From: a bacterium
GTDB taxonomy: Bacteria > RBG-13-61-14 > DATKZS01
Assembly: GCA_035527835.1 (NCBI GenBank)
Contig: DATKZS010000109.1
Coordinates: forward strand, 819 to 64,818
Reading direction: 5' to 3'
DNA: 64,000 nucleotides
Position 1 is the first letter of the stretch. The number at the start of each line of letters is the position of its first letter. Below are positions 4,645 to 54,435 of the stretch, one piece after another. Both the position numbers and the translations under genes were made by a program. The notes under the pieces were generated by a model. It did no database searches. It saw only the letters and a list, made by a program, of their open reading frames with translations, and was not told the origin of the DNA.

Positions 4645-4693
4645 TCATGACTCATCAATTTTTACTTTTTACTTTTTACCTTTTACTTTTGTC
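4645..4693. repeat. heptanucleotide tract (TTTTACY)n abutting the PHP gene start
   Basis: Sequence tttttactttttactttttaccttttacttttg lies immediately before the ATG at 4694. No Shine-Dalgarno is present. Confidence 0.6.
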
Positions 4694-5245
4694 ATGAAGT
4701 GCGCATTACACGTCCATACCAACCTCTCCGACGCGGCCCTCACCCCGGATGAAGTGTTGAAGATTTACGCGGACCTCGGGTTCGGGATGGTGGCCATCAC
4801 GGACCACGAGTTCCTGCTCCGCGACAACTACGTCGCGCTGGTGCAGGGGGCCAGGCACCGCGGGATGGCGGTGGCGGCGGGGGTCGAGGTGGACTGGGAG
4901 CCGTGGAACTACCACCACCTGCTGCGCATCTCCGGCACGCGCGAGACGCTGCACGTGCTGGCGCACCCCGGCGCGTATTACCTGGAAATCGAGGAGGTGA
5001 ACGCGCGGCTCGGGTCAACGCCTTTTGCCGTGGACGCGGTCGAGGTGACGCACCGCGGCTTTTATACTCCGAAATACGACACGGACCTGATCGCCGCGCC
5101 CAGGATCGCCACCGACGACGCGCACGAGCCCCACGAGTGCGGCCGCGCCTGGATCGAAATGGCCGACACCCGCGACCTGGACCGGGCGCTCCGGGCCGTG
5201 AAGGCCGGGGACTTCGAGGTGAGGTTCTTCAGAAATAGTAGATAG
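4694..5245 (+). CDS. PHP-domain metal-dependent phosphoesterase
   Basis: The N-terminal HVHTNLSD motif and the later ITDHE motif are typical of the PHP family. Confidence 0.7.
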   Translation: MKCALHVHTNLSDAALTPDEVLKIYADLGFGMVAITDHEFLLRDNYVALVQGARHRGMAVAAGVEVDWEPWNYHHLLRISGTRETLHVLAHPGAYYLEIEEVNARLGSTPFAVDAVEVTHRGFYTPKYDTDLIAAPRIATDDAHEPHECGRAWIEMADTRDLDRALRAVKAGDFEVRFFRNSR

Positions 5246-5294
5246 TAGCAAGTAGCCGGTAGCCAGGGAAATGCTTCAATCTGTTTGGCTCTCA

Positions 5295-5398
5295 TTCTTC
5301 AGCCCTGAAAGGGCCAAAATAAGATAGCCCAGGGTTGGCCGTCCTCGGCCTACCCTGGGATATCGGAGCCCATAATATCCTTTTCAGCCCTGAAAGGG
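5295..5398. repeat. two copies of a roughly 30-bp direct repeat, each carrying the hairpin AGCCCTGAAAGGGC
   Basis: Sequence tcttcagccctgaaagggccaaaataagat at about 5295 matches ttttcagccctgaaagggcgaaataaaaat at about 5368. Both lie downstream of the PHP gene. Confidence 0.6.
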
Positions 5399-11836: not shown

Positions 11837-11887
11837 GGAGGGCTTGAGGCTTGGGGCTTGGGGCTGCGCCGGAGAGGGGAGTAAGAC
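11837..11887. repeat. heptanucleotide tract (GGCTTGR)n between the histidine kinase and response regulator genes
   Basis: Sequence gggcttgaggcttggggcttggggctg. Confidence 0.55.
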
Positions 11888-12352: not shown

Positions 12353-12451
12353 GGGAGGCACAGGGCTTGGGGCTTGAGGCTTGGGGCTTGAGGATAGAGA
12401 CAAGGCATCTTGGCCTCACCCCTCACGCCTCACGCCTCAAGCCTCAGTCCA
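12353..12451. repeat. inverted heptanucleotide-repeat pair, (GGCTTGR)n and (CCTCACG)n, between convergent genes; likely a bidirectional terminator
   Basis: Sequence gggcttggggcttgaggcttggggcttgagg is followed by cctcacccctcacgcctcacgcctcaagcctcag. The two are imperfect reverse complements of each other. Confidence 0.6.
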
Positions 12452-14657: not shown

Positions 14658-16142
14658 ATGAGGATGGGCCGGAAAGTATTAATTTTCGGGAGCGGGGCGG
14701 TGATCGGGGCACTGGTGGCGGTGGCCATCGGGTGCCTGCAAATCCGGAGCCCGAAGGTGGTGGTTCGGGAGCCGGCGGCGCCGGGCGAGTCCACCTTGAC
14801 GTACACTCCGCCGCCCGAAGCCACGCTCTCGGCGGAGATGGCGGCCAAGGCCGCGCCCATGCTGCTCACCATGATCAGCCCGAAGATCGTGAAGGTGAAG
14901 GACGGCGTTTACGTGGCCATGGGTTACGCGCTGGGCAACGTGGCGATGGTGGTGACGGACGATGGCCTGGTGATCGTGGACACCACGGAGCGCGAGGAAG
15001 CGGCCAAGAAGATCATGGCGGAGTTCCGGAAGATCTCGGACCAGCCGGTGCGCTACGTGGTCTATACCCACTTCCACCCGGACCACACCCAGGGCACGCG
15101 GGCCTTCATGGGGCCGGGCACGCGGGTGATCGCGACCAGGGCCTTCCTCTACTGGATCGCCTACCAGAACGAGCTGCTGGGCACGCACCACCGCCGGTCG
15201 CGGGCGACGCAGGCGGGGCTCAGGGAGCCGGAATGGGCCTTTGACATGCCCATCTCCCGGAACCCGTTCCTGGGAGCGTGGAAAAAGCCCGAGGTGGTGA
15301 TGCCCACCATCACGTTCGAGGATGACTACAGCTTCACGCTGGGGGGCAAGCGCTTCGAGCTGTTTGCGACGCAGGGCGAGACCGAGGACCACCTGGCCAT
15401 GTGGATGCCGGACGAGCGCGTGCTCTTTGTGGGCGACCTGTATTACAAGTCCTTCCCCAACCTGTCCACCCCCATGCTCGAATCGCGGCCGGTGCAGGGA
15501 TGGATTGATTCGCTCACCCGCTTCATCGGCATGAAGCCGGAATACCTGGTGCTCGGGCACACCGAGCCGCTCCAAGGCGCGGACCTCATCGCCGAGCACC
15601 TCACCAACTACCGCGACGCCGTCGAGTACGTGCACGACGAAACCGTGCGCTGCATCAACGAGGGCAAGACCGTGGACCAGGCCGTGGCCGAGATCAAGCT
15701 GCCGGAGCGGCTGGCCAAGCTCGACTACCTGAACCCGGCGTACGGCCGGGTGGACTGGTCGGTGCGGGGCATCTATCACGGCTACAAGGGCTGGTACGAC
15801 GGCCAGGGCACGGCCCTGAACCCGCTGCCGCCCCAGTACCGGGCGCGCGAGCTGGTGCAACTGGCCGGTGGCGCCGACAAAATCCTGGCCCGCGCCATCG
15901 AGCTGCAAAAGAACGGCGAGCACCAGCTCACCGCCGAGCTCTGCGACCTGGTCATCGCCGCGAACCCGGCCGACAAGCTCGCCCACCGCATCAAGGCCGC
16001 CTCCATGCAGTACATGGCCTACGGCTTCAATAACCTCAACTGCTTCGGCTTCTACCGCTCGGCCTACTCCCTGGAAATGAAGGCCGCGGGAGAGCCGCCC
16101 CGCAGCGAAAAGTCGTCGGACGCCCAGGGCGTGAGCAAATAA
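14658..16142 (+). CDS. MBL-fold metallo-hydrolase (alkyl/aryl-sulfatase-like), membrane-anchored or secreted
   Basis: Motif THFHPDHTQG (HxHxDH) is present, an N-terminal hydrophobic helix is present, and an AAGGAGG Shine-Dalgarno precedes the start. Confidence 0.7.
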   Translation: MRMGRKVLIFGSGAVIGALVAVAIGCLQIRSPKVVVREPAAPGESTLTYTPPPEATLSAEMAAKAAPMLLTMISPKIVKVKDGVYVAMGYALGNVAMVVTDDGLVIVDTTEREEAAKKIMAEFRKISDQPVRYVVYTHFHPDHTQGTRAFMGPGTRVIATRAFLYWIAYQNELLGTHHRRSRATQAGLREPEWAFDMPISRNPFLGAWKKPEVVMPTITFEDDYSFTLGGKRFELFATQGETEDHLAMWMPDERVLFVGDLYYKSFPNLSTPMLESRPVQGWIDSLTRFIGMKPEYLVLGHTEPLQGADLIAEHLTNYRDAVEYVHDETVRCINEGKTVDQAVAEIKLPERLAKLDYLNPAYGRVDWSVRGIYHGYKGWYDGQGTALNPLPPQYRARELVQLAGGADKILARAIELQKNGEHQLTAELCDLVIAANPADKLAHRIKAASMQYMAYGFNNLNCFGFYRSAYSLEMKAAGEPPRSEKSSDAQGVSK

Positions 16143-16226
16143 AGGCTGCGAATTATTATAGCACTGTTGGATTTGAAGGTGTTAAGAATGCTGTAATGTT
16201 GCTTACACTAAGACGGAGGGCATAAA

Positions 16227-17159
16227 ATGGGTAAGGCAAATAAGCAAAAGCCCGATAGCAAGGCAAAGGCTGGATGTTTTAGGTATCCTCTAATTGTTAT
16301 TATTGCCTTCTTTATCTATGCCCCTCCTGTTTGTGTGAGCAAGTCTCAAAACCATATATTCGTAGATGGTCCTTCTGATCTTTATGATATCCATAGCCTG
16401 GCTCGGAGAGGCAAGACCCCTCTTGTCATTATCTACACCCTATTTAGTCCCAAATTGGTGAATTCGATTGATGATGGTAAGACCCCTCTCCATCTAGCAG
16501 CGGCAAACGGCCATACTTTCATGGTTCACTATTTGGTTTGGATAAAGGCTGACGTAAACAATAGGGGTCGAACCACGCCGCTAGAAGAAGCTCTCATCAG
16601 CGCCGCCAATATTAATCGCGCCAACCGCATTGCAAAGTATCTTATTGATCATGGATCTAAAATAAATCCTAAATCGGGTAGAGCGCCATTAAGCGTTGCT
16701 GTTTCCTATTGTAATACAGAAATGGCAAGCTATCTAATTGATAAAGGGGCGGATGTCAATTATGGCTCTCCGATTCTGCTCGCTACTCGTTGTGATGGTA
16801 ACATGTTAAAACTACTTGTGGATCATGGAGCAAATATTAACGCACGTTATAGGGATGGGAGGACTTTCCTGCACCAATTGGTTCTTGAAATGCCGAGTCC
16901 TCGATATGAACTCTTTCCTATACTTGCCGAAAATGGGATTGATCTCAATGCACAGGACGAACAAGGAAATACCTTTGTTCATTTGGCAGTTAATAAGGGA
17001 GATATAAAATTTATAGAACTTGCCATTGAGTATGGCGCTGCTGTGAATATCAATAATAATGAAGGAAAATCTCCTCTTGACCTAGCATTGGAAAAACCCA
17101 AGTATAAGATAACTGAGATTATAATTAACCAGCTGATAAATGAAGCTTCCATAAAATAG
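16227..17159 (+). CDS. ankyrin-repeat protein with N-terminal signal/TM segment (low-GC island)
   Basis: Ankyrin motifs GKTPLHLAAANGH...LV are repeated several times. The region is AT-rich relative to its flanks, and a GGAGGG Shine-Dalgarno precedes the start. Confidence 0.8.
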   Translation: MGKANKQKPDSKAKAGCFRYPLIVIIAFFIYAPPVCVSKSQNHIFVDGPSDLYDIHSLARRGKTPLVIIYTLFSPKLVNSIDDGKTPLHLAAANGHTFMVHYLVWIKADVNNRGRTTPLEEALISAANINRANRIAKYLIDHGSKINPKSGRAPLSVAVSYCNTEMASYLIDKGADVNYGSPILLATRCDGNMLKLLVDHGANINARYRDGRTFLHQLVLEMPSPRYELFPILAENGIDLNAQDEQGNTFVHLAVNKGDIKFIELAIEYGAAVNINNNEGKSPLDLALEKPKYKITEIIINQLINEASIK

Positions 17160-17231
17160 CGCGTTATTTTCTTAAATTCCGTAAATTCCGGGGACACAAT
17201 ACCTAACCAGCCCCATCTTCTCATCTTCACC

Positions 17232-17392
17232 TCATCGCCCGGTCAATTGCTCCATTTTTTCGGGATAGCGGGTGCCTTGGACGGTGATCTGGGAGGCGGC
17301 GGTTTGGATGTCGCGGAGGTCGGCGGAGGTGAGCTCGACCTTGACCGCTCCGATGTTCTCGTCCAGGCGCTCGAGTTTGGGGCGTGACGGGT
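17232..17392 (-). pseudogene. 3' remnant of an aldo/keto reductase gene
   Basis: Minus-strand translation gives ...PKLERLDENIGAVKVELTSADLRDIQTAASQITVQGTRYPEKMEQLTGR* — the typical AKR C-terminus (the preceding 5' codons run into the arm of the hairpin element at 17389). The 5' three-quarters of the gene is missing and its place is taken by the hairpin element at 17389. Confidence 0.55.
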
Positions 17393-17475
17393 CAGTGCTT
17401 CAGTTTTCAGTTAATCTGGGGAATGTTCATGACCTGGGGAGACTCGCGATTAACTGAAAACTGAAGCACTGACCC
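17389..17475. repeat. long inverted-repeat hairpin element (copy 1 of 2)
   Basis: Sequence GGGTCAGTGCTTCAGTTTTCAGTTAAT ... ATTAACTGAAAACTGAAGCACTGACCC forms a roughly 27-bp stem. A near-identical architecture is found at 46717-46803. Confidence 0.75.
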
Positions 17476-17550
17476 TGGCGACTTTTGCTGGACAGGGAGA
17501 TGTTGTAGCATGGAGACAAGGCGGGCCGGGGTCATCCGGAGGAAAACGTC

Positions 17551-18603
17551 ATGGCCGGGCTCGATTGGCGGGAGATGAAAAACACAAAGGCGATAAAGGT
17601 ATCTGAGATCGCGGAGCTGGTCGGCGGCGAGGTGGTTGGTGACGGCGGCGCGGAGGTGAAGGGCGTGGCGTCGCTGGAGGAGGCGGGGCCGGAGGACGTG
17701 AGTTTTTGGGGTAGCGTGAAGCACAAGGACGCGGCCATGGCGAGCAAGGCGGGCGCGCTGATCGTGGGCAAGGCGATCAAGAAGGACGTGCCGCAAGTGG
17801 CGGTGGCTGATCCTTATGCCGCGTTCGTCAAGGTGATGGAGTATTTTCATCCAGTGGCACGGCCGGAGCCGGGCGTGCATAAGACGGCGGTGGTGGAGAA
17901 GGACGTCACGCTGGGCGCGGACGTCTCCGTGGGCGCGCTCGCGGTGGTGGGCGCGGGGACCAGGATCGGGGCGCGGAGCGTGATCGGCGCGGGCGCCGTG
18001 ATGGGACCGGGGTGCGAGATCGGAGAGGACTGCGTGGTCCATGCCCGGGTCACGCTGTACGCGGGCACGCGGGTGGGATCGCGGGTGGTCATCCATTCGG
18101 GCACGGTGATCGGGTCGGACGGGTTCGGGTACATCCTGTCGGACCAGGGCCACGTGAAGAAGCCGCAGGTGGGCCGGGTGGTGATCGGGGACGACGTGGA
18201 GATCGGGGCCAACTGCGCGATTGACCGGGCCATGCTGGACGCCACGGTGATCGGGGCGGGGACCAAGCTCGACAACCTGGTGCACGTGGCCCACGGGGTG
18301 CGGATGGGAAGAAATTGCATCCTGCTAGCGGGCGCGATGGTGGGCGGCAGCGTGAGGCTGGGGGATTTCTGCATCATCTCCGGGAACGTGACGATCAAGG
18401 ACAACATCACGCTGGGCGACCGGGTGACGGTGGCGGGCCATTCGGCGGTGGCGGACGACGTGGCGTCGGGTCAGACGGTGTGGGGCTTCCCCGCCATGCC
18501 CTTCTCGCTGGCCAAGCGCGTGTTCGGCAGGGCCAAGCAGCTCCCGGACCTGTTCACGCGGGTCAGGGCGCTGGAAAAGAAAATGAAGAAGGAAGATAAA
18601 TAA
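17551..18603 (+). CDS. lpxD: UDP-3-O-acylglucosamine N-acyltransferase
   Basis: An N-terminal LpxD-type domain is followed by many hexapeptide (left-handed beta-helix) repeats. The length is about 350 aa, and a GGAGGA Shine-Dalgarno sits 8 nt upstream. Confidence 0.8.
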   Translation: MAGLDWREMKNTKAIKVSEIAELVGGEVVGDGGAEVKGVASLEEAGPEDVSFWGSVKHKDAAMASKAGALIVGKAIKKDVPQVAVADPYAAFVKVMEYFHPVARPEPGVHKTAVVEKDVTLGADVSVGALAVVGAGTRIGARSVIGAGAVMGPGCEIGEDCVVHARVTLYAGTRVGSRVVIHSGTVIGSDGFGYILSDQGHVKKPQVGRVVIGDDVEIGANCAIDRAMLDATVIGAGTKLDNLVHVAHGVRMGRNCILLAGAMVGGSVRLGDFCIISGNVTIKDNITLGDRVTVAGHSAVADDVASGQTVWGFPAMPFSLAKRVFGRAKQLPDLFTRVRALEKKMKKEDK

Positions 18604-19206: not shown

Positions 19207-19283
19207 GACAGGATTAACAGGATTTACAGGATGTCCGGAATACGCCTTCTCTTTTGTATCCTGTAAATCCTGTTAATCCTGTC
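19207..19283 (+). terminator. long hairpin downstream of the cNMP-binding gene
   Basis: Arm gacaggattaacaggatttacaggat pairs with atcctgtaaatcctgttaatcctgtc and is followed by aaaattttt. Confidence 0.5.
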
Positions 19284-19370: not shown

Positions 19371-19446
19371 TGGTAGGCGCGCGCGGGCTTGAACCGCGGA
19401 CCCCTACCGTGTCAGGGTAGTGCTCTCCCAACTGAGCTACGCGCCT
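19371..19446 (-). tRNA. tRNA-Val (anticodon GAC)
   Basis: The 76-nt cloverleaf has acceptor AGGCGCG/CGCGCCT, D-arm GCTCAGTTGGGAGAGC, anticodon loop CTGACAC, T-arm CGCGGTTCAAGCCCGCG, and an encoded CCA. Confidence 0.9.
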
Positions 19447-27619: not shown

Positions 27620-27717
27620 GAATTTTCAACGCCAAGACGCAAAGACGCAACGTATTTTTTTATTTTCTTTTTTCTTGGCATCTTGGCGCCTTGGCATCTT
27701 GGCGTTAAAAATTCCCT
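27620..27717. repeat. palindromic GCCAAGACGCCAAGG-type element (copy 1 of 3)
   Basis: Sequence gggaattttcaacgccaagacgcaaagacgcaacg, then an AT-rich loop, then cttggcatcttggcgccttggcatcttggcgttaaaaattccc. It lies between the lipA stop and the maoC start. Confidence 0.65.
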
Positions 27718-28652: not shown

Positions 28653-28717
28653 GGCGGTTAAATTTTATGGCCGGCGGCCGGGCGATGCAATGAGCCGATA
28701 AAAGCAGACAAGAAGAT

Positions 28718-28800
28718 TACCGCCAAGACGCCAAGGCCTCCAAGAACGCCAAGAAAAAATATTTTTATTAATTCTTGGCAACCTTGGCGTCTTGGCGGTG
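28718..28800. repeat. palindromic GCCAAGACGCCAAGG-type element (copy 2 of 3)
   Basis: Sequence accgccaagacgccaaggcctccaagaacgccaagaaaaaa, then an AT loop, then cttggcaaccttggcgtcttggcggtg. Confidence 0.65.
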
Positions 28801-29000
28801 ACCTTTTTGCCGATACCTTTCGAGAACGGACTCTCCCTGATCATCGCAGCGGCACCAGCCCTTTCTTGCTGGCCGGACGGGTGACGGCGGCGCTGATCGG
28901 GACGGGGCCGGCTCGCGTTACCATTGCCGCTGATCTGGGTTATACTGAATTTAAGAATATCTGAGATGGTTCGTCAAGGGAAGGGTAATAAGGAGCGCGG

Positions 29001-34028: not shown

Positions 34029-34105
34029 ACCGCCAAGACGCCAAGGCCGCCAAGGAGAATAAGATTTATTTTTCTTGGCGGTCTTGGCGTCATGGCTGCT
34101 TGGCG
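34029..34105. repeat. palindromic GCCAAGACGCCAAGG-type element (copy 3 of 3)
   Basis: Sequence accgccaagacgccaaggccgccaaggagaataag, then an AT loop, then cttggcggtcttggcgtcatggctgcttggcg. It lies between convergent genes. Confidence 0.65.
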
Positions 34106-41459: not shown

Positions 41460-42386
41460 ATGCCAAAAAAACGAGTTGAACTGGTAACTCATATATTCAA
41501 AGGCGCTCGTTTCGAGGATCACGGCATTGATATAGACGTCCTTGAGGAGTTGATTGTATATAAAAAAATCTTGGTTGAAACAGCCAAGGAACTTTGGCGA
41601 CGTCATAACCCTGATCGTCAAAGATTGCCGAAAAATTTTGAAGATTCTCTCTGCATCAAGTTTTATGAGCTTCGGGAAGGCTCAACTGGCGTTCCGATGA
41701 TGCGGGAAATTGAATATGATAACGGCGAACTCCCTCTTCCACGGCCTGAGGATGAACTGGATGAGGCTGTGAAGGTTGTTGCGGAAGCGGAAGATGCGGC
41801 CAATAATGATTACCCGCTCCCGGATAATTTTCCTAAAAATATCATTCCACTGTTCGATAAATATGGAGACAGTTTGAGAGAAGACGAGAGTTTTGAGCAC
41901 CAGCCGGCAAACTCCGAACGACGTATCATTTATAATAAGAAGACTCGTGAACGGTTGCATAGTTGGTCAGACGGTCAATACGAAGACATGATTGAGCTGA
42001 GCGGGGAAGTCCGAGCCGCAGACCTTGACCAAGGAAATTTCACCATTCGTCTGGATGACGGGACCAAAGTCGCCGGAAAATTTAATCCGAGCCAGGAAGA
42101 AGAGGTAACGCTCGCACTCCGCGAACATGAGAAGAAGAGGCTAAGCGTGAAAGGTAGAGGAGGGTTTTCCTCGCCCGAAGGCAAGCTGAGACGTATTATC
42201 GCCGTGGAGCAAATGATAATTCATCAAGGTAATGGCGACGTTTTTGATGCCAGCGCCCGACCCATTTGGGAAGTCGTTTCCGAGATTGGGGCCTCCGTTC
42301 CCGAAGAGGAATGGGCCAAGGTTCCCACCGATCTTTCGAAAAACCTTGATCATTACTTGTACGGCGCACCCAAGGATGCGAAATGA
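41460..42386 (+). CDS. hypothetical acidic protein (308 aa), putative partner of the downstream PIN toxin (low-GC island)
   Basis: AT-rich codon usage unlike its flanks. The stop overlaps the PIN gene start (ATGA). The C-terminus ends ...KVPTDLSKNLDHYLYGAPKDAK. Confidence 0.5.
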   Translation: MPKKRVELVTHIFKGARFEDHGIDIDVLEELIVYKKILVETAKELWRRHNPDRQRLPKNFEDSLCIKFYELREGSTGVPMMREIEYDNGELPLPRPEDELDEAVKVVAEAEDAANNDYPLPDNFPKNIIPLFDKYGDSLREDESFEHQPANSERRIIYNKKTRERLHSWSDGQYEDMIELSGEVRAADLDQGNFTIRLDDGTKVAGKFNPSQEEEVTLALREHEKKRLSVKGRGGFSSPEGKLRRIIAVEQMIIHQGNGDVFDASARPIWEVVSEIGASVPEEEWAKVPTDLSKNLDHYLYGAPKDAK

Positions 42387-42793
42387 AAAAAATTTTCGCC
42401 GATTCCTCTTATTGGATTGCTCTTCTTAATCCTCGAGATGAACATCATGATAAGGCAAAAATAGTTTCTTCTTCTCTCGGACAGATACATATCGTCACCA
42501 GCGACATGGTTTTAACGGAATTCTTAAATTCCTTTTCCACTAGAGGAACTTTATTGCGAAAAAGGGCAGCAGAAACCGCCAAGGGAATCTTGAACAATCC
42601 CAATGTGAAAGTTGTTGCTCAAACCAGGGAGCAATTCAATGAAGCCCTCTCGCTATTTTCCGACCGAGAGGACAAGGAATGGGGCCTTACTGACTGTTCC
42701 TCCATTAAGATCTGCATTGATAACAAGATCAATGAGGTGTTAACCGCCGACCATCATTTTCAACAAGCCGGCTTGATCGCGTTGTTGTTATAG
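42383..42793 (+). CDS. PIN-domain ribonuclease (VapC-like toxin)
   Basis: The N-terminal FADSSYWIAL motif (first acidic residue) and the later acidic residues TSD and LTDC are present. The length is about 136 aa. Confidence 0.75.
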   Translation: MKKIFADSSYWIALLNPRDEHHDKAKIVSSSLGQIHIVTSDMVLTEFLNSFSTRGTLLRKRAAETAKGILNNPNVKVVAQTREQFNEALSLFSDREDKEWGLTDCSSIKICIDNKINEVLTADHHFQQAGLIALLL

Positions 42794-45836: not shown

Positions 45837-46598
45837 CTATTTATGCTTGGGCGGAGGAGGATTGTTGGTGGATGGCGCGGGCTTTTCTTCCTTGGCGGGC
45901 GGCTGCTTGTTGTCAGCGGGAGCGTCGTCGCCCTTTTCCCACCAGAAGAGGGCCTTTCTCCACTGGGGCTTGATGTCGGTGCCGTTGGCGCCGGGTTCGA
46001 GCTTTTTCTTGCGGGTGCGGACTTCCTTGCGGATGGCGAGGAGGCGCTCGATGACGATGGAGCGGTTATCGAGGTCGGAGCTGAACTTGGGCACGAACCA
46101 TCCGGGGTCGCGGGCCAGCACGTAGACGACCCTGGTCTTTTGGTGGTCGGGGGCGAACGGGTGCAGCGCGATGGACTCGTATTCGGTCTTGAGGTTTCCT
46201 TCCTCCATGGTGAAAGAGATGGTCCAGGCTTTTTTGTTTTCCGCGGCCTTCAAGGTGTACACGAAGTCCGGGTAGGGCCAGAGGTTGTTGATCCGGATCT
46301 TTACGTGGACGATGTTTTGTTTGCGGTCGAGCAGCTCGGAGCCGGCGATGGAGGGGAAAATTTTCTGGTAAGCGGCGTAGTCGGTGAGCGCGGACCAGAT
46401 CAGCTCGGGGGGCGCGTCAGTCAAAATCTCGCCCTGCACCTCGTGGACCGAAGTCTCGGGGGCCTCGCGGAAGCTGATGAGCACGTCGCCCCGCAACAGC
46501 CGGCCCTCATCCGCGCTAAGAGGCTCCGCCCCGAGCCCGCCGGGGGCGATCCCAACTATCAGTAACATGGCCCCTGCCCATGCCAGGATGTTCTTCAT
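45837..46598 (-). CDS. secreted SRPBCC (START/Bet v1-like) protein
   Basis: A signal peptide MKNILAWAGAMLLIVGIAPGGLGA is followed by a polyketide-cyclase-like fold segment and a Pro/Lys-rich tail. Confidence 0.55.
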   Translation of the reverse strand: MKNILAWAGAMLLIVGIAPGGLGAEPLSADEGRLLRGDVLISFREAPETSVHEVQGEILTDAPPELIWSALTDYAAYQKIFPSIAGSELLDRKQNIVHVKIRINNLWPYPDFVYTLKAAENKKAWTISFTMEEGNLKTEYESIALHPFAPDHQKTRVVYVLARDPGWFVPKFSSDLDNRSIVIERLLAIRKEVRTRKKKLEPGANGTDIKPQWRKALFWWEKGDDAPADNKQPPAKEEKPAPSTNNPPPPKHK

Positions 46599-46716
46599 CT
46601 TCCACGCCGCGGACGGGCATATTGCCTGTGATGGTCGCATCATCCGATTGTAATGCTAGATCAGGGGGACATCAAAGTCAAGGAATAAACGGCGTTCCAA
46701 TCCTGGACAGCGGGTT

Positions 46717-46803
46717 GGGTCAGAGCTTCAGTTTTCAGTTAATGAGAGGATTGCCGAAAGCTGGAGCGATCCCGACATTAACTGAAAACTGAAGCTCTGA
46801 CCC
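46717..46803. repeat. long inverted-repeat hairpin element (copy 2 of 2)
   Basis: Sequence GGGTCAGAGCTTCAGTTTTCAGTTAAT ... ATTAACTGAAAACTGAAGCTCTGACCC. It has compensatory changes relative to the copy at 17389. Confidence 0.75.
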
Positions 46804-46885: not shown

Positions 46886-46961
<76 letters not shown>

Positions 46962-47012: not shown

Positions 47013-47110
47013 GGATGCCGGAAGCGGAGAGGAGCGAGGAGCGAGGAGCGAGGAACGAGGGAAGCCCCGGCCTCAAGCCTCACGCCGGCCGCCGCACGTC
47101 TCTTCCCTCG
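47013..47110. repeat. inverted heptanucleotide-repeat pair, (GAGGARC)n and its complement
   Basis: Sequence gaggagcgaggagcgaggaacgaggg ... cctcgatcttcgctccccgcccgtcgctcctc. The same unit family occurs as its reverse complement at 2640-2700. Confidence 0.6.
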
Positions 47111-54389: not shown

Positions 54390-54435
54390 GGGGCCAGAGG
54401 CTTGGGGCTTGGGGCTTGAGGCTCGGGGCGCGGGA
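54390..54435. repeat. heptanucleotide tract (GGCTTGR)n
   Basis: Sequence ggccagaggcttggggcttggggcttgaggctcgggg. It belongs to the same family as the tracts at 11840 and 12360. Confidence 0.6.

Follow-up and report, generated by a model that had tools for sequence, protein, structure and literature searches.

A foreign-composition ankyrin-repeat gene and an aldo/keto reductase remnant bordering a dispersed palindromic repeat upstream of lpxD in an uncultured bacterium

The stretch of DNA analyzed here (64,000 nucleotides of contig DATKZS010000109.1, called the window below; overall GC content 0.63) comes from a Gram-negative, high-GC, unclassified bacterium, the sequences of which have been obtained solely from metagenomes. 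Between the genes encoding a metallo-beta-lactamase (MBL)-fold hydrolase and LpxD, the window carries an ankyrin-repeat (ANK) gene, the C-terminal remnant of an aldo/keto reductase (AKR) gene and an 87-bp palindromic hairpin. These features probably result from two independent lesions lying side by side, namely the gain of a foreign ANK gene and a deletion in the AKR gene ending at a resident, dispersed hairpin. The lesions are regarded as separate because the AKR remnant, which has the composition of the host (GC 0.63; GC content at third codon positions, GC3, 0.80), lies between the AT-rich islet containing the ANK gene and the hairpin. Since the islet and the truncation are located at opposite ends of this remnant, the single combined event proposed in a preliminary description of the locus was abandoned. 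The composition of the locus, the identity of its parts, the location of the breakpoint, and the existence of the hairpin in several copies are established (Table 1).

The GC content falls directly after the stop codon of the MBL hydrolase gene at 16142, which forms the left edge of the islet, and is back up by about 17230-17260. The ANK gene is preceded by a ribosome-binding site (GGAGGG) and has a GC content of 0.41 and a GC3 of 0.36, versus GC3 values of 0.92 in the MBL hydrolase gene and 0.88 in lpxD. The foreign composition attributed to this gene in the preliminary description was borne out by these values, which also support the islet as a single-gene insert of foreign composition lying between the MBL hydrolase gene and lpxD. 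The ANK gene is the only open reading frame (ORF) in the islet, and no integrase or transposase was found among the islet ORFs. The closest tRNA gene (19371-19446) is 2.2 kb away, and no direct repeats of 9 nt or more were found at the junctions. The longest junction repeat is an 8-mer, CATAAAAT, present at 16221-16228 and 17150-17157, which overlaps the start and stop codons of the ANK gene and is compatible with chance. The features classically defining a genomic island (an integrase or transposase, insertion adjacent to a tRNA gene, and flanking direct repeats) are therefore absent from the islet. Searches of plasmid and phage collections with the islet DNA, and of viral contigs with the ANK protein, gave zero matches. 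Because of its patchy distribution and its atypical composition, the ANK gene appears to have been acquired by horizontal transfer. An exact tandem duplication of the 9-mer TAAATTCCG, which is also compatible with chance, occurs at 17173-17190, in the 72-nt spacer between the ANK and AKR stop codons.

The Pfam matches of the ANK protein, judged against the curated gathering cut-offs, include Ank_2 (E 1e-33; 116 bits, cut-off 27.3) and Ank (E 1.5e-26; 91 bits, cut-off 21.1), as well as Ank_4, Ank_3, and Ank_5, and residues 56-300 align to ankyrin-1 and to DARPins in the PDB with E values of about 1e-49. The protein therefore shows the tandem repeats of about 33 residues, scoring above curated thresholds, which are typical of ankyrin proteins. 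Its first 19 residues are lysine-rich, with a net charge of +5, and are followed by the only strongly hydrophobic stretch in the protein, the N-terminal anchor already noted in the preliminary description (residues 20-38, YPLIVIIAFFIYAPPVCVS), which has a Kyte-Doolittle 19-residue mean of 1.99, versus 0.95 or less in the rest of the protein; the residues after this segment are slightly acidic. No lipobox was noticed when the sequence was read. This N-terminus is compatible with a Sec-type signal or a signal anchor, and since the +5 region precedes the hydrophobic segment, the positive-inside rule predicts that the repeats should face the periplasm, either in a signal-anchored protein or after cleavage.

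Bacterial ANK proteins that are exported or anchored include AnkB of Pseudomonas aeruginosa, and "eukaryote-like" ANK proteins occur in Wolbachia, Legionella, and sponge symbionts. The present protein resembles bacterial ANK proteins with an export signal in that its tandem 33-residue repeats make up a protein-binding solenoid, that a hydrophobic segment near the N-terminus shows a positive-inside charge pattern, and that its distribution is patchy and its composition atypical. It differs from the characterized ANK proteins in its lack of specific orthology: in the protein database search, its closest relative besides itself showed only generic similarity (35% identity over 70% of the length), and the further matches, at 25-35%, were with unnamed metagenomic, Planctomycetota, Wolbachia, insect, and plant ANK proteins. 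These generic matches therefore revealed no specific homology to either a eukaryotic gene or a characterized effector, nor did the searches point to a eukaryotic, viral, or plasmid donor. The term "eukaryote-like" used in the preliminary description consequently holds in the generic sense, whereas the eukaryotic donor it implies did not emerge. Contrary to what is known of other ANK systems, the window shows no secretion-system genes, no partner gene such as katB, and no evidence of a host-associated lifestyle. The PADLOC matches of the protein (PDC-M72A, "Ankyrin") were put down to generic repeat similarity, and a defense role was not accepted. The ANK protein can be regarded as a candidate extracytoplasmic protein-binding factor, which no result connects with a host or a pathway.

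On the minus strand, the sequence from 17387 to 17235 reads SRPKLERLDENIGAVKVELTSADLRDIQTAASQITVQGTRYPEKMEQLTGR and the frame ends in ...KLERLDENIGAVKVELTSADLRDIQTAASQITVQGTRYPEKMEQLTGR*, the TGA stop codon being located at 17234-17232. When the C-terminal piece of an AKR was used as the query in a tblastn search, positions 17390-17235 were matched with 78.8% identity (E 3e-23), which confirmed that this frame corresponds to the last 50 or so codons of an AKR, as had been read from the sequence initially. The remnant covers residues equivalent to approximately 279-330 of an AKR of about 330 amino acids; in the PDB, it matches residues 279-317 of the 337 residues of perakine reductase (E 0.013). 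A large protein database yielded 37 relatives of the remnant (62-82% identity, E 1.6e-16 to 3.5e-5), most of which are annotated as PF00248. Since all the relatives terminate in RYPEKLEQ[LM]TGR, the remnant has retained the natural C-terminus and stop codon of the family. No start codon is present, however, and a stop just upstream closes the frame, while N-terminal AKR queries (206 and 271 aa) matched nothing in the whole window (best tblastn E 0.1). C-terminal PF00248 homology was thus found, but not the complete (alpha/beta)8 barrel with its catalytic residues. The same holds in comparison with the AKR11/13-like "aryl-alcohol dehydrogenase-like" enzymes (PF00248; perakine reductase, PDB 3uyi/3v0s): about 50 terminal residues can be aligned, including the ...ENIGA...LT..DL..I...RYPE... 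tail and the stop, whereas the barrel, the catalytic residues, and the start codon of these enzymes are missing. Judging from its sequence, the AKR frame is a pseudogene remnant and encodes no enzyme. No protein has been called on it by NCBI, where HUT53807 and HUT53808 are consecutive.

The AKR homology is clear from the lysine codon at 17378-17376, and the outer base of the hairpin is at 17389; the breakpoint is therefore located 10 nt or less from the hairpin, and the statement that the remnant ends at this element proved to be correct. Neither the translations nor the tblastn search revealed any AKR-like coding signal in the region 17476-17550, on the other side of the hairpin. The still open frame and its 79% identity with distant AKRs suggest a truncation that is not ancient, but a stretch of 51 codons is too short for dating it. 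All 37 matches were 44-90 aa long, this bias toward short matches being an effect of the word-index search. The possibility that they might form a conserved AKR mini-gene was rejected: their genomic contexts show them to be the C-terminal ends of full-length AKR genes that have been split or frameshifted (206+85 aa, 271+55 aa) and are located in unrelated neighborhoods. Two contigs of an unrelated organism (L029, 5203-5463; L030, 2760-3020) carry an 86-aa AKR C-terminal ORF, preceded by a 44-aa ORF and a gene for a zinc alcohol dehydrogenase. The N-terminal AKR part was not called there, and this ORF may represent a further case of truncation in this AKR subfamily.

The hairpin abutting the AKR breakpoint consists of two fully complementary 28-nt arms (17389-17416 and 17448-17475; 100% pairing) separated by a 31-nt loop (17417-17447). 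The arm (GGGTCAGTGC TTCAGTT TTCAGTT AATC) is composed of heptamer-like units, TCAGTGC-TTCAGTT-TTCAGTT, the complement of which includes TAACTGA-AAACTGA. Folded as RNA, the element has a predicted energy of -61 kcal/mol (z = -10), and folded as DNA, one of -33 kcal/mol (z = -9.8); none of 200 shuffled sequences folded equally well. A second copy, at 46717-46803, differs from the first one by two arm substitutions, both of which are compensated. Its 31-nt loop, in the opposite orientation, can be aligned only loosely with that of the first copy, and it is located between a polyketide-cyclase/START-like gene (45837-46643, minus strand) and a tRNA-Gly(CCC) gene (46887-46961, plus strand). When a covariance model of this family (family 1) was run, these were the only two full copies in the window. 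Further copies were gathered from JGI metagenome contigs using an exact 19-mer from one arm, and 13 distinct loci remained after removal of the duplicates: the two in the window and 11 others, in high-GC contigs of the JGI metagenomes that also hold the present locus. These numbers show that the hairpin is a dispersed repeat and not a unique scar; in the preliminary description, it had been regarded as the replacement of the missing part of the AKR gene.

The pairwise identity between the family-1 copies is 94-95% in the arms, 50% in the loops and 31-36% in the flanks; as the loops can be aligned, the element has an orientation. The arms are paired in 98.6% of their cells, and at two positions both partners differ between copies in a compensated manner (AU/UA/GC and CG/AU/GC). 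A score of 0.073 was obtained for covariation, versus 0.023 in the shuffles, and was not reached in any of the 500 shuffles. All the copies lie between genes, whether these are convergent, divergent, or co-directional. No target-site duplications were detected in the flanks of the 13 copies, which show a weak C-rich bias on one side only. The Rfam scan returned two tRNAs only, so that the hairpin matches no known RNA family, and the element is absent from the reference-genome, viral-contig, phage, and plasmid collections searched. The scan of 16050-17600 revealed no intrinsic terminator at the hairpin: rather than a short GC-rich stem with a U-tract, the element has an AT-rich 28-bp stem not directly followed by a T-run. 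In three cases, the hairpin is located 73-75 nt upstream of a start codon: that of lpxD (75 nt), that of the gene at 46643 (73 nt), and that of a mutS-like gene on contig L054 (495-3200, minus strand; N-terminus MNKITPMLKQYFEIKEQYPD...; 74 nt). A promoter module with a spacing of about 74 nt between the hairpin and the start codon was considered and rejected: the spacers share no motif, and other copies are located at 3' ends or between co-directional genes, so that the similar spacing was put down to coincidence.

REPINs, which are doublets of repetitive extragenic palindromic (REP) sequences, form hairpins with variable loops (Bertels and Rainey, 2011, PMC3116915). The family-1 element resembles REPs and REPINs (PMC3116915) and bacterial MITEs (miniature transposable elements bounded by inverted repeats; reviewed in PMC10969869) in being a short, extragenic, multicopy hairpin with two inverted repeats of about 28 nt, a variable loop, and preserved complementarity. 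Its perfect 28-bp terminal inverted repeats, its size (87 bp, below about 300 bp), and its 13 dispersed loci are those of a MITE, and its extragenic inverted repeats, variable spacer, and maintained pairing are those of a REPIN. Unlike REP units, however, the arms are not palindromic themselves but contain heptamer-like direct-repeat runs; no cognate REP-associated tyrosine transposase (RAYT) or insertion sequence was identified in the window or the fetched loci, and only 13 loci are known so far, hundreds of copies per genome being typical of REPs and REPINs. Contrary to most MITEs, the family-1 copies show no target-site duplication. Convergent pairs of GGGAATC heptamer arrays capable of forming stem-loops have been described in Xanthomonas (Rehm et al., 2015, PMC4692102), and intergenic TAACTGA direct heptamer repeats in Beggiatoaceae, Cyanobacteria, and Bacteroidetes (MacGregor, 2015, PMC4679880). 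The convergent tandem 7-nt arms found here in intergenic DNA are of the Xanthomonas type. As in these systems, 7-nt arrays occur in intergenic regions, often in convergent stem-loop pairs, there are many different units, the number of units varies, and the complement of the arm even reads TAACTGA-AAACTGA. Here, in contrast, each family shares a homologous loop and disperses as a whole unit, and the arms, of about three units, are nearly invariant, whereas the Beggiatoaceae TAACTGA repeats are direct rather than inverted and occur just upstream of start codons. Since related phenomena are described in the literature on Xanthomonas, TAACTGA repeats, and REPINs, the 87-bp hairpin represents a new family of a generally known kind of element, and not a one-off scar.

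The following history of the locus is the most likely one. Through horizontal transfer and recombination of the illegitimate, non-site-specific type, an AT-rich segment of 1.09 kb with a single complete gene would have entered the 3'-3' spacer separating the MBL and AKR genes, which are convergent, and the segment would not yet have drifted in composition toward the host. The gene product would be inserted by the Sec machinery with its repeats exposed to the periplasm or the exterior, where they might serve as a protein-binding scaffold. The hairpin would already have been resident in the divergent AKR-lpxD spacer, like the copies present about 74 nt upstream of other genes. Processing of the hairpin or cruciform, or recombination between two copies, would have removed the DNA on its left, and with it the promoter of the AKR gene and some 275-280 codons of its N-terminal part, while 51 in-frame codons and the natural stop stayed in place. 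Long palindromes are hot-spots for breakage and deletion. For this reason, and because every other copy is intergenic, a palindrome-associated deletion at a resident hairpin is the mechanism favored here for the loss of the AKR gene. Since the hairpin is a copy of a dispersed family, itself part of a broader class of intergenic hairpins of which this genome has many, an insertion is no more likely than a deletion that ended at an element already in place.

Several points weigh against this account. The data are equally compatible with insertion of the hairpin into the AKR gene followed by a deletion. No intact AKR gene was found between MBL and lpxD in any relative, either in the contexts of six MBL homologs or in a search for lpxD in reference genomes, and the ancestral arrangement is therefore an assumption. 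The islet carries no mobility gene, attachment site, or flanking repeat indicating its route of entry, and the prediction that the ANK protein is exported comes from hydropathy and charge calculations alone. As regards the hairpin family, ascertainment with an exact 19-mer inflates the apparent conservation of the arms, and possible shared ancestry of the copies inflates the result of the covariation shuffle test.

The alternative which survives best, unlikely but worth weighing, is that a MITE- or REPIN-like hairpin transposed into an intact AKR gene, and that either a deletion next to it or recombination with another copy, located in the lpxD leader, later removed the upstream part of this gene. 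The presence of the 87-bp element at no fewer than 13 unrelated intergenic loci with unrelated flanks does indicate dispersal, its terminal inverted repeats and small size are in keeping with mobility, and the lack of target-site duplications would fit single-strand mobilization of the IS200/IS605 or RAYT type. None of the 12 other copies interrupts a gene, however, all of them being intergenic; neither a transposase nor a RAYT turned up in the window and the fetched loci, which were not systematically searched for them; no empty-site/filled-site pair was found; and the hairpin shows no similarity to plasmid or viral DNA. An import of the ANK gene together with the AKR fragment, and possibly also the hairpin, in one block left over from a larger island is very improbable: although the three features are contiguous (16143-17475) and the N-terminal part of the AKR is nowhere in the window, the AKR fragment is host-like in GC and GC3 whereas the ANK gene is not, the hairpin family is resident at many loci with the composition of the host, and two donors of opposite composition would be required. 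That the low-GC segment was mis-assembled, or that the AKR-like frame is a chance ORF, is scarcely credible, even though the source is a metagenome-assembled contig and Pfam gives no score to the 52-aa AKR piece, since the region 14658-18603 with all its junctions is 100% identical in five independent assemblies (two from ENA, two from Logan, and one from JGI) of different samples, and the AKR match not only is highly significant but also ends exactly at the natural C-terminus of the family.

Two separate lesions, as favored here, would make the locus a clean, datable-in-principle example of everyday gene gain and gene decay in an uncultured lineage: on the gain side, a single unameliorated foreign gene without any mobility signature, and on the loss side, a neighboring gene decaying at a palindromic repeat, right beside the essential lipid A gene lpxD. 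This is ordinary genome wear and tear, in which nothing but the hairpin repeat family stands out as mildly unusual, and the current understanding of such processes stands. The hairpin family is the more useful lead, as material for studies on the spread and maintenance of palindromes and on their possible role in promoting deletions.

Table 1. Features of the locus and related hairpins in the window (positions are those of the window).
Feature	Position	Strand	Description	Basis
MBL-fold alkyl/aryl-sulfatase-like hydrolase	14658-16142	+	494 aa	Pfam Alkyl_sulf_dimr (E 5e-37), Lactamase_B (E 2e-20)
AT-rich single-gene islet	16143-17231	none	1,089 bp; GC 0.41	Composition
ANK gene	16227-17159	+	310 aa; NCBI HUT53807.1	ORF call, Pfam
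Hydrophobic segment, codons 20-38	16284-16340	+	YPLIVIIAFFIYAPPVCVS	Kyte-Doolittle, charge count
Ankyrin solenoid	16392-17141	+	Residues ~56-305, ~7-8 repeats	Pfam stretches, PDB alignments; repeat count by eye
AKR pseudogene remnant	17232-17387	-	Last ~51 codons and natural stop	tblastn, PDB, database matches
Palindromic repeat, family 1	17389-17475	+	87 bp	Fold, family membership
lpxD leader/promoter region	17476-17550	+	75 nt	Translations, tblastn
lpxD (UDP-3-O-acylglucosamine N-acyltransferase)	17551-18603	+	350 aa; HUT53808.1	Pfam LpxD and Hexapep
Second family-1 hairpin	46717-46803	-		Repeat search, covariance model
GGCTTGR hairpin	12363-12446
ACAGGATTW hairpin	19207-19283
CGCCAAGA hairpin	27628-27706
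CGCCAAGA hairpin	28717-28801
CGCCAAGA hairpin	34029-34105

At least seven long intergenic hairpins of the same architecture are present in the window, consisting of the two family-1 copies and five with other units; they are members of a wider class, the arms of which are inverted arrays of units of 7-10 nt. The arms of the latter five are inverted arrays of about three tandem units of 7-9 nt, with DNA-fold z-scores ranging between -3.8 and -8.5, and they are located in convergent, divergent, and co-directional intergenic spacers. Tandem Repeats Finder (TRF) detected arrays with periods of 7 to 9, on both arms, at 12363/12413, 19208/19258, 28721, and 34031/34073. The genome seems to carry roughly one such hairpin per 9 kb. 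The contigs carrying family-1 copies hold further units, GCAGATGAAC, GAAGCAA, CACAGAGR, GGCTTGA, and TCAGGAT, several of which recur across loci; other hairpin families were found on contigs L043, L047, L048, L046, L054, and L060. On L043, where hairpins occupy 5138-5213 and 5290-5375, a family-2 and a family-1 hairpin are located 76 bp apart, and the family-2 copy has three units on one arm and two on the other; the number of units varies between the copies of this second family. Hairpins of this kind are also present in a different metagenome-assembled genome from the same sample (L008; 168-264, 3017-3184, and 7795-7905). All in all, at least eight unit types were found in this population plus one co-occurring relative.

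One might speculate, with little confidence, that the 87-bp hairpin belongs to an undescribed superfamily of dispersed palindromes, in which each family consists of inverted arrays of a different 7-10-nt unit, the arms remaining nearly invariant and perfectly complementary while the loops drift. If this were the case, a dedicated system recognizing hairpins and responsible for their mobilization or copy correction (RAYT-like or new), or else a structured DNA or RNA function, would be expected, and these elements would also be breakpoints truncating neighboring genes such as that of the AKR.

The neighbors of the locus were also compared with their relatives. The six MBL homologs (63-72% identity) occur in six unrelated contexts, none of which includes an AKR gene or lpxD nearby, and the relatives of lpxD in 185,579 reference genomes, belonging to Verrucomicrobiota, Zoogloea, and others, show 40% identity at the most. 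Exact-protein look-ups with the ANK protein and LpxD returned only contigs with the same arrangement, and no insert-free strain was found among them.

Other short repeats and AT-rich islets occur elsewhere in the window. Heptamer arrays of TCCCCGC (x7) and GCTTCTG (x19) are located within 2630-2835, and others at 4659-4690, 11840-11865, 47029-47060, and 54399-54429. An AT-rich islet with a GC content of 0.37-0.44 is present on the minus strand at 43-1547. Its 378-aa ORF (43-1179) contains a 5-hmdU DNA kinase helical domain (PF18723, E 6e-107), characteristic of a phage thymidine hypermodification enzyme, and is overlapped by a 134-aa ORF (1143-1547) with no Pfam match. Beside this islet, TCAAACC (x5; 1979-2015) and GGTTTGT (x4.6; 2241-2272) form a non-coding inverted pair 225 nt apart. 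The third AT-rich islet (41460-42793, plus strand; GC3 0.46-0.47) encodes a 308-aa protein matching the PADLOC candidate defense family PDC-M32A (E 5e-54), the gene for which is followed and overlapped by that of a PIN-domain protein (E 3e-10); this islet is probably a small defense or toxin module.

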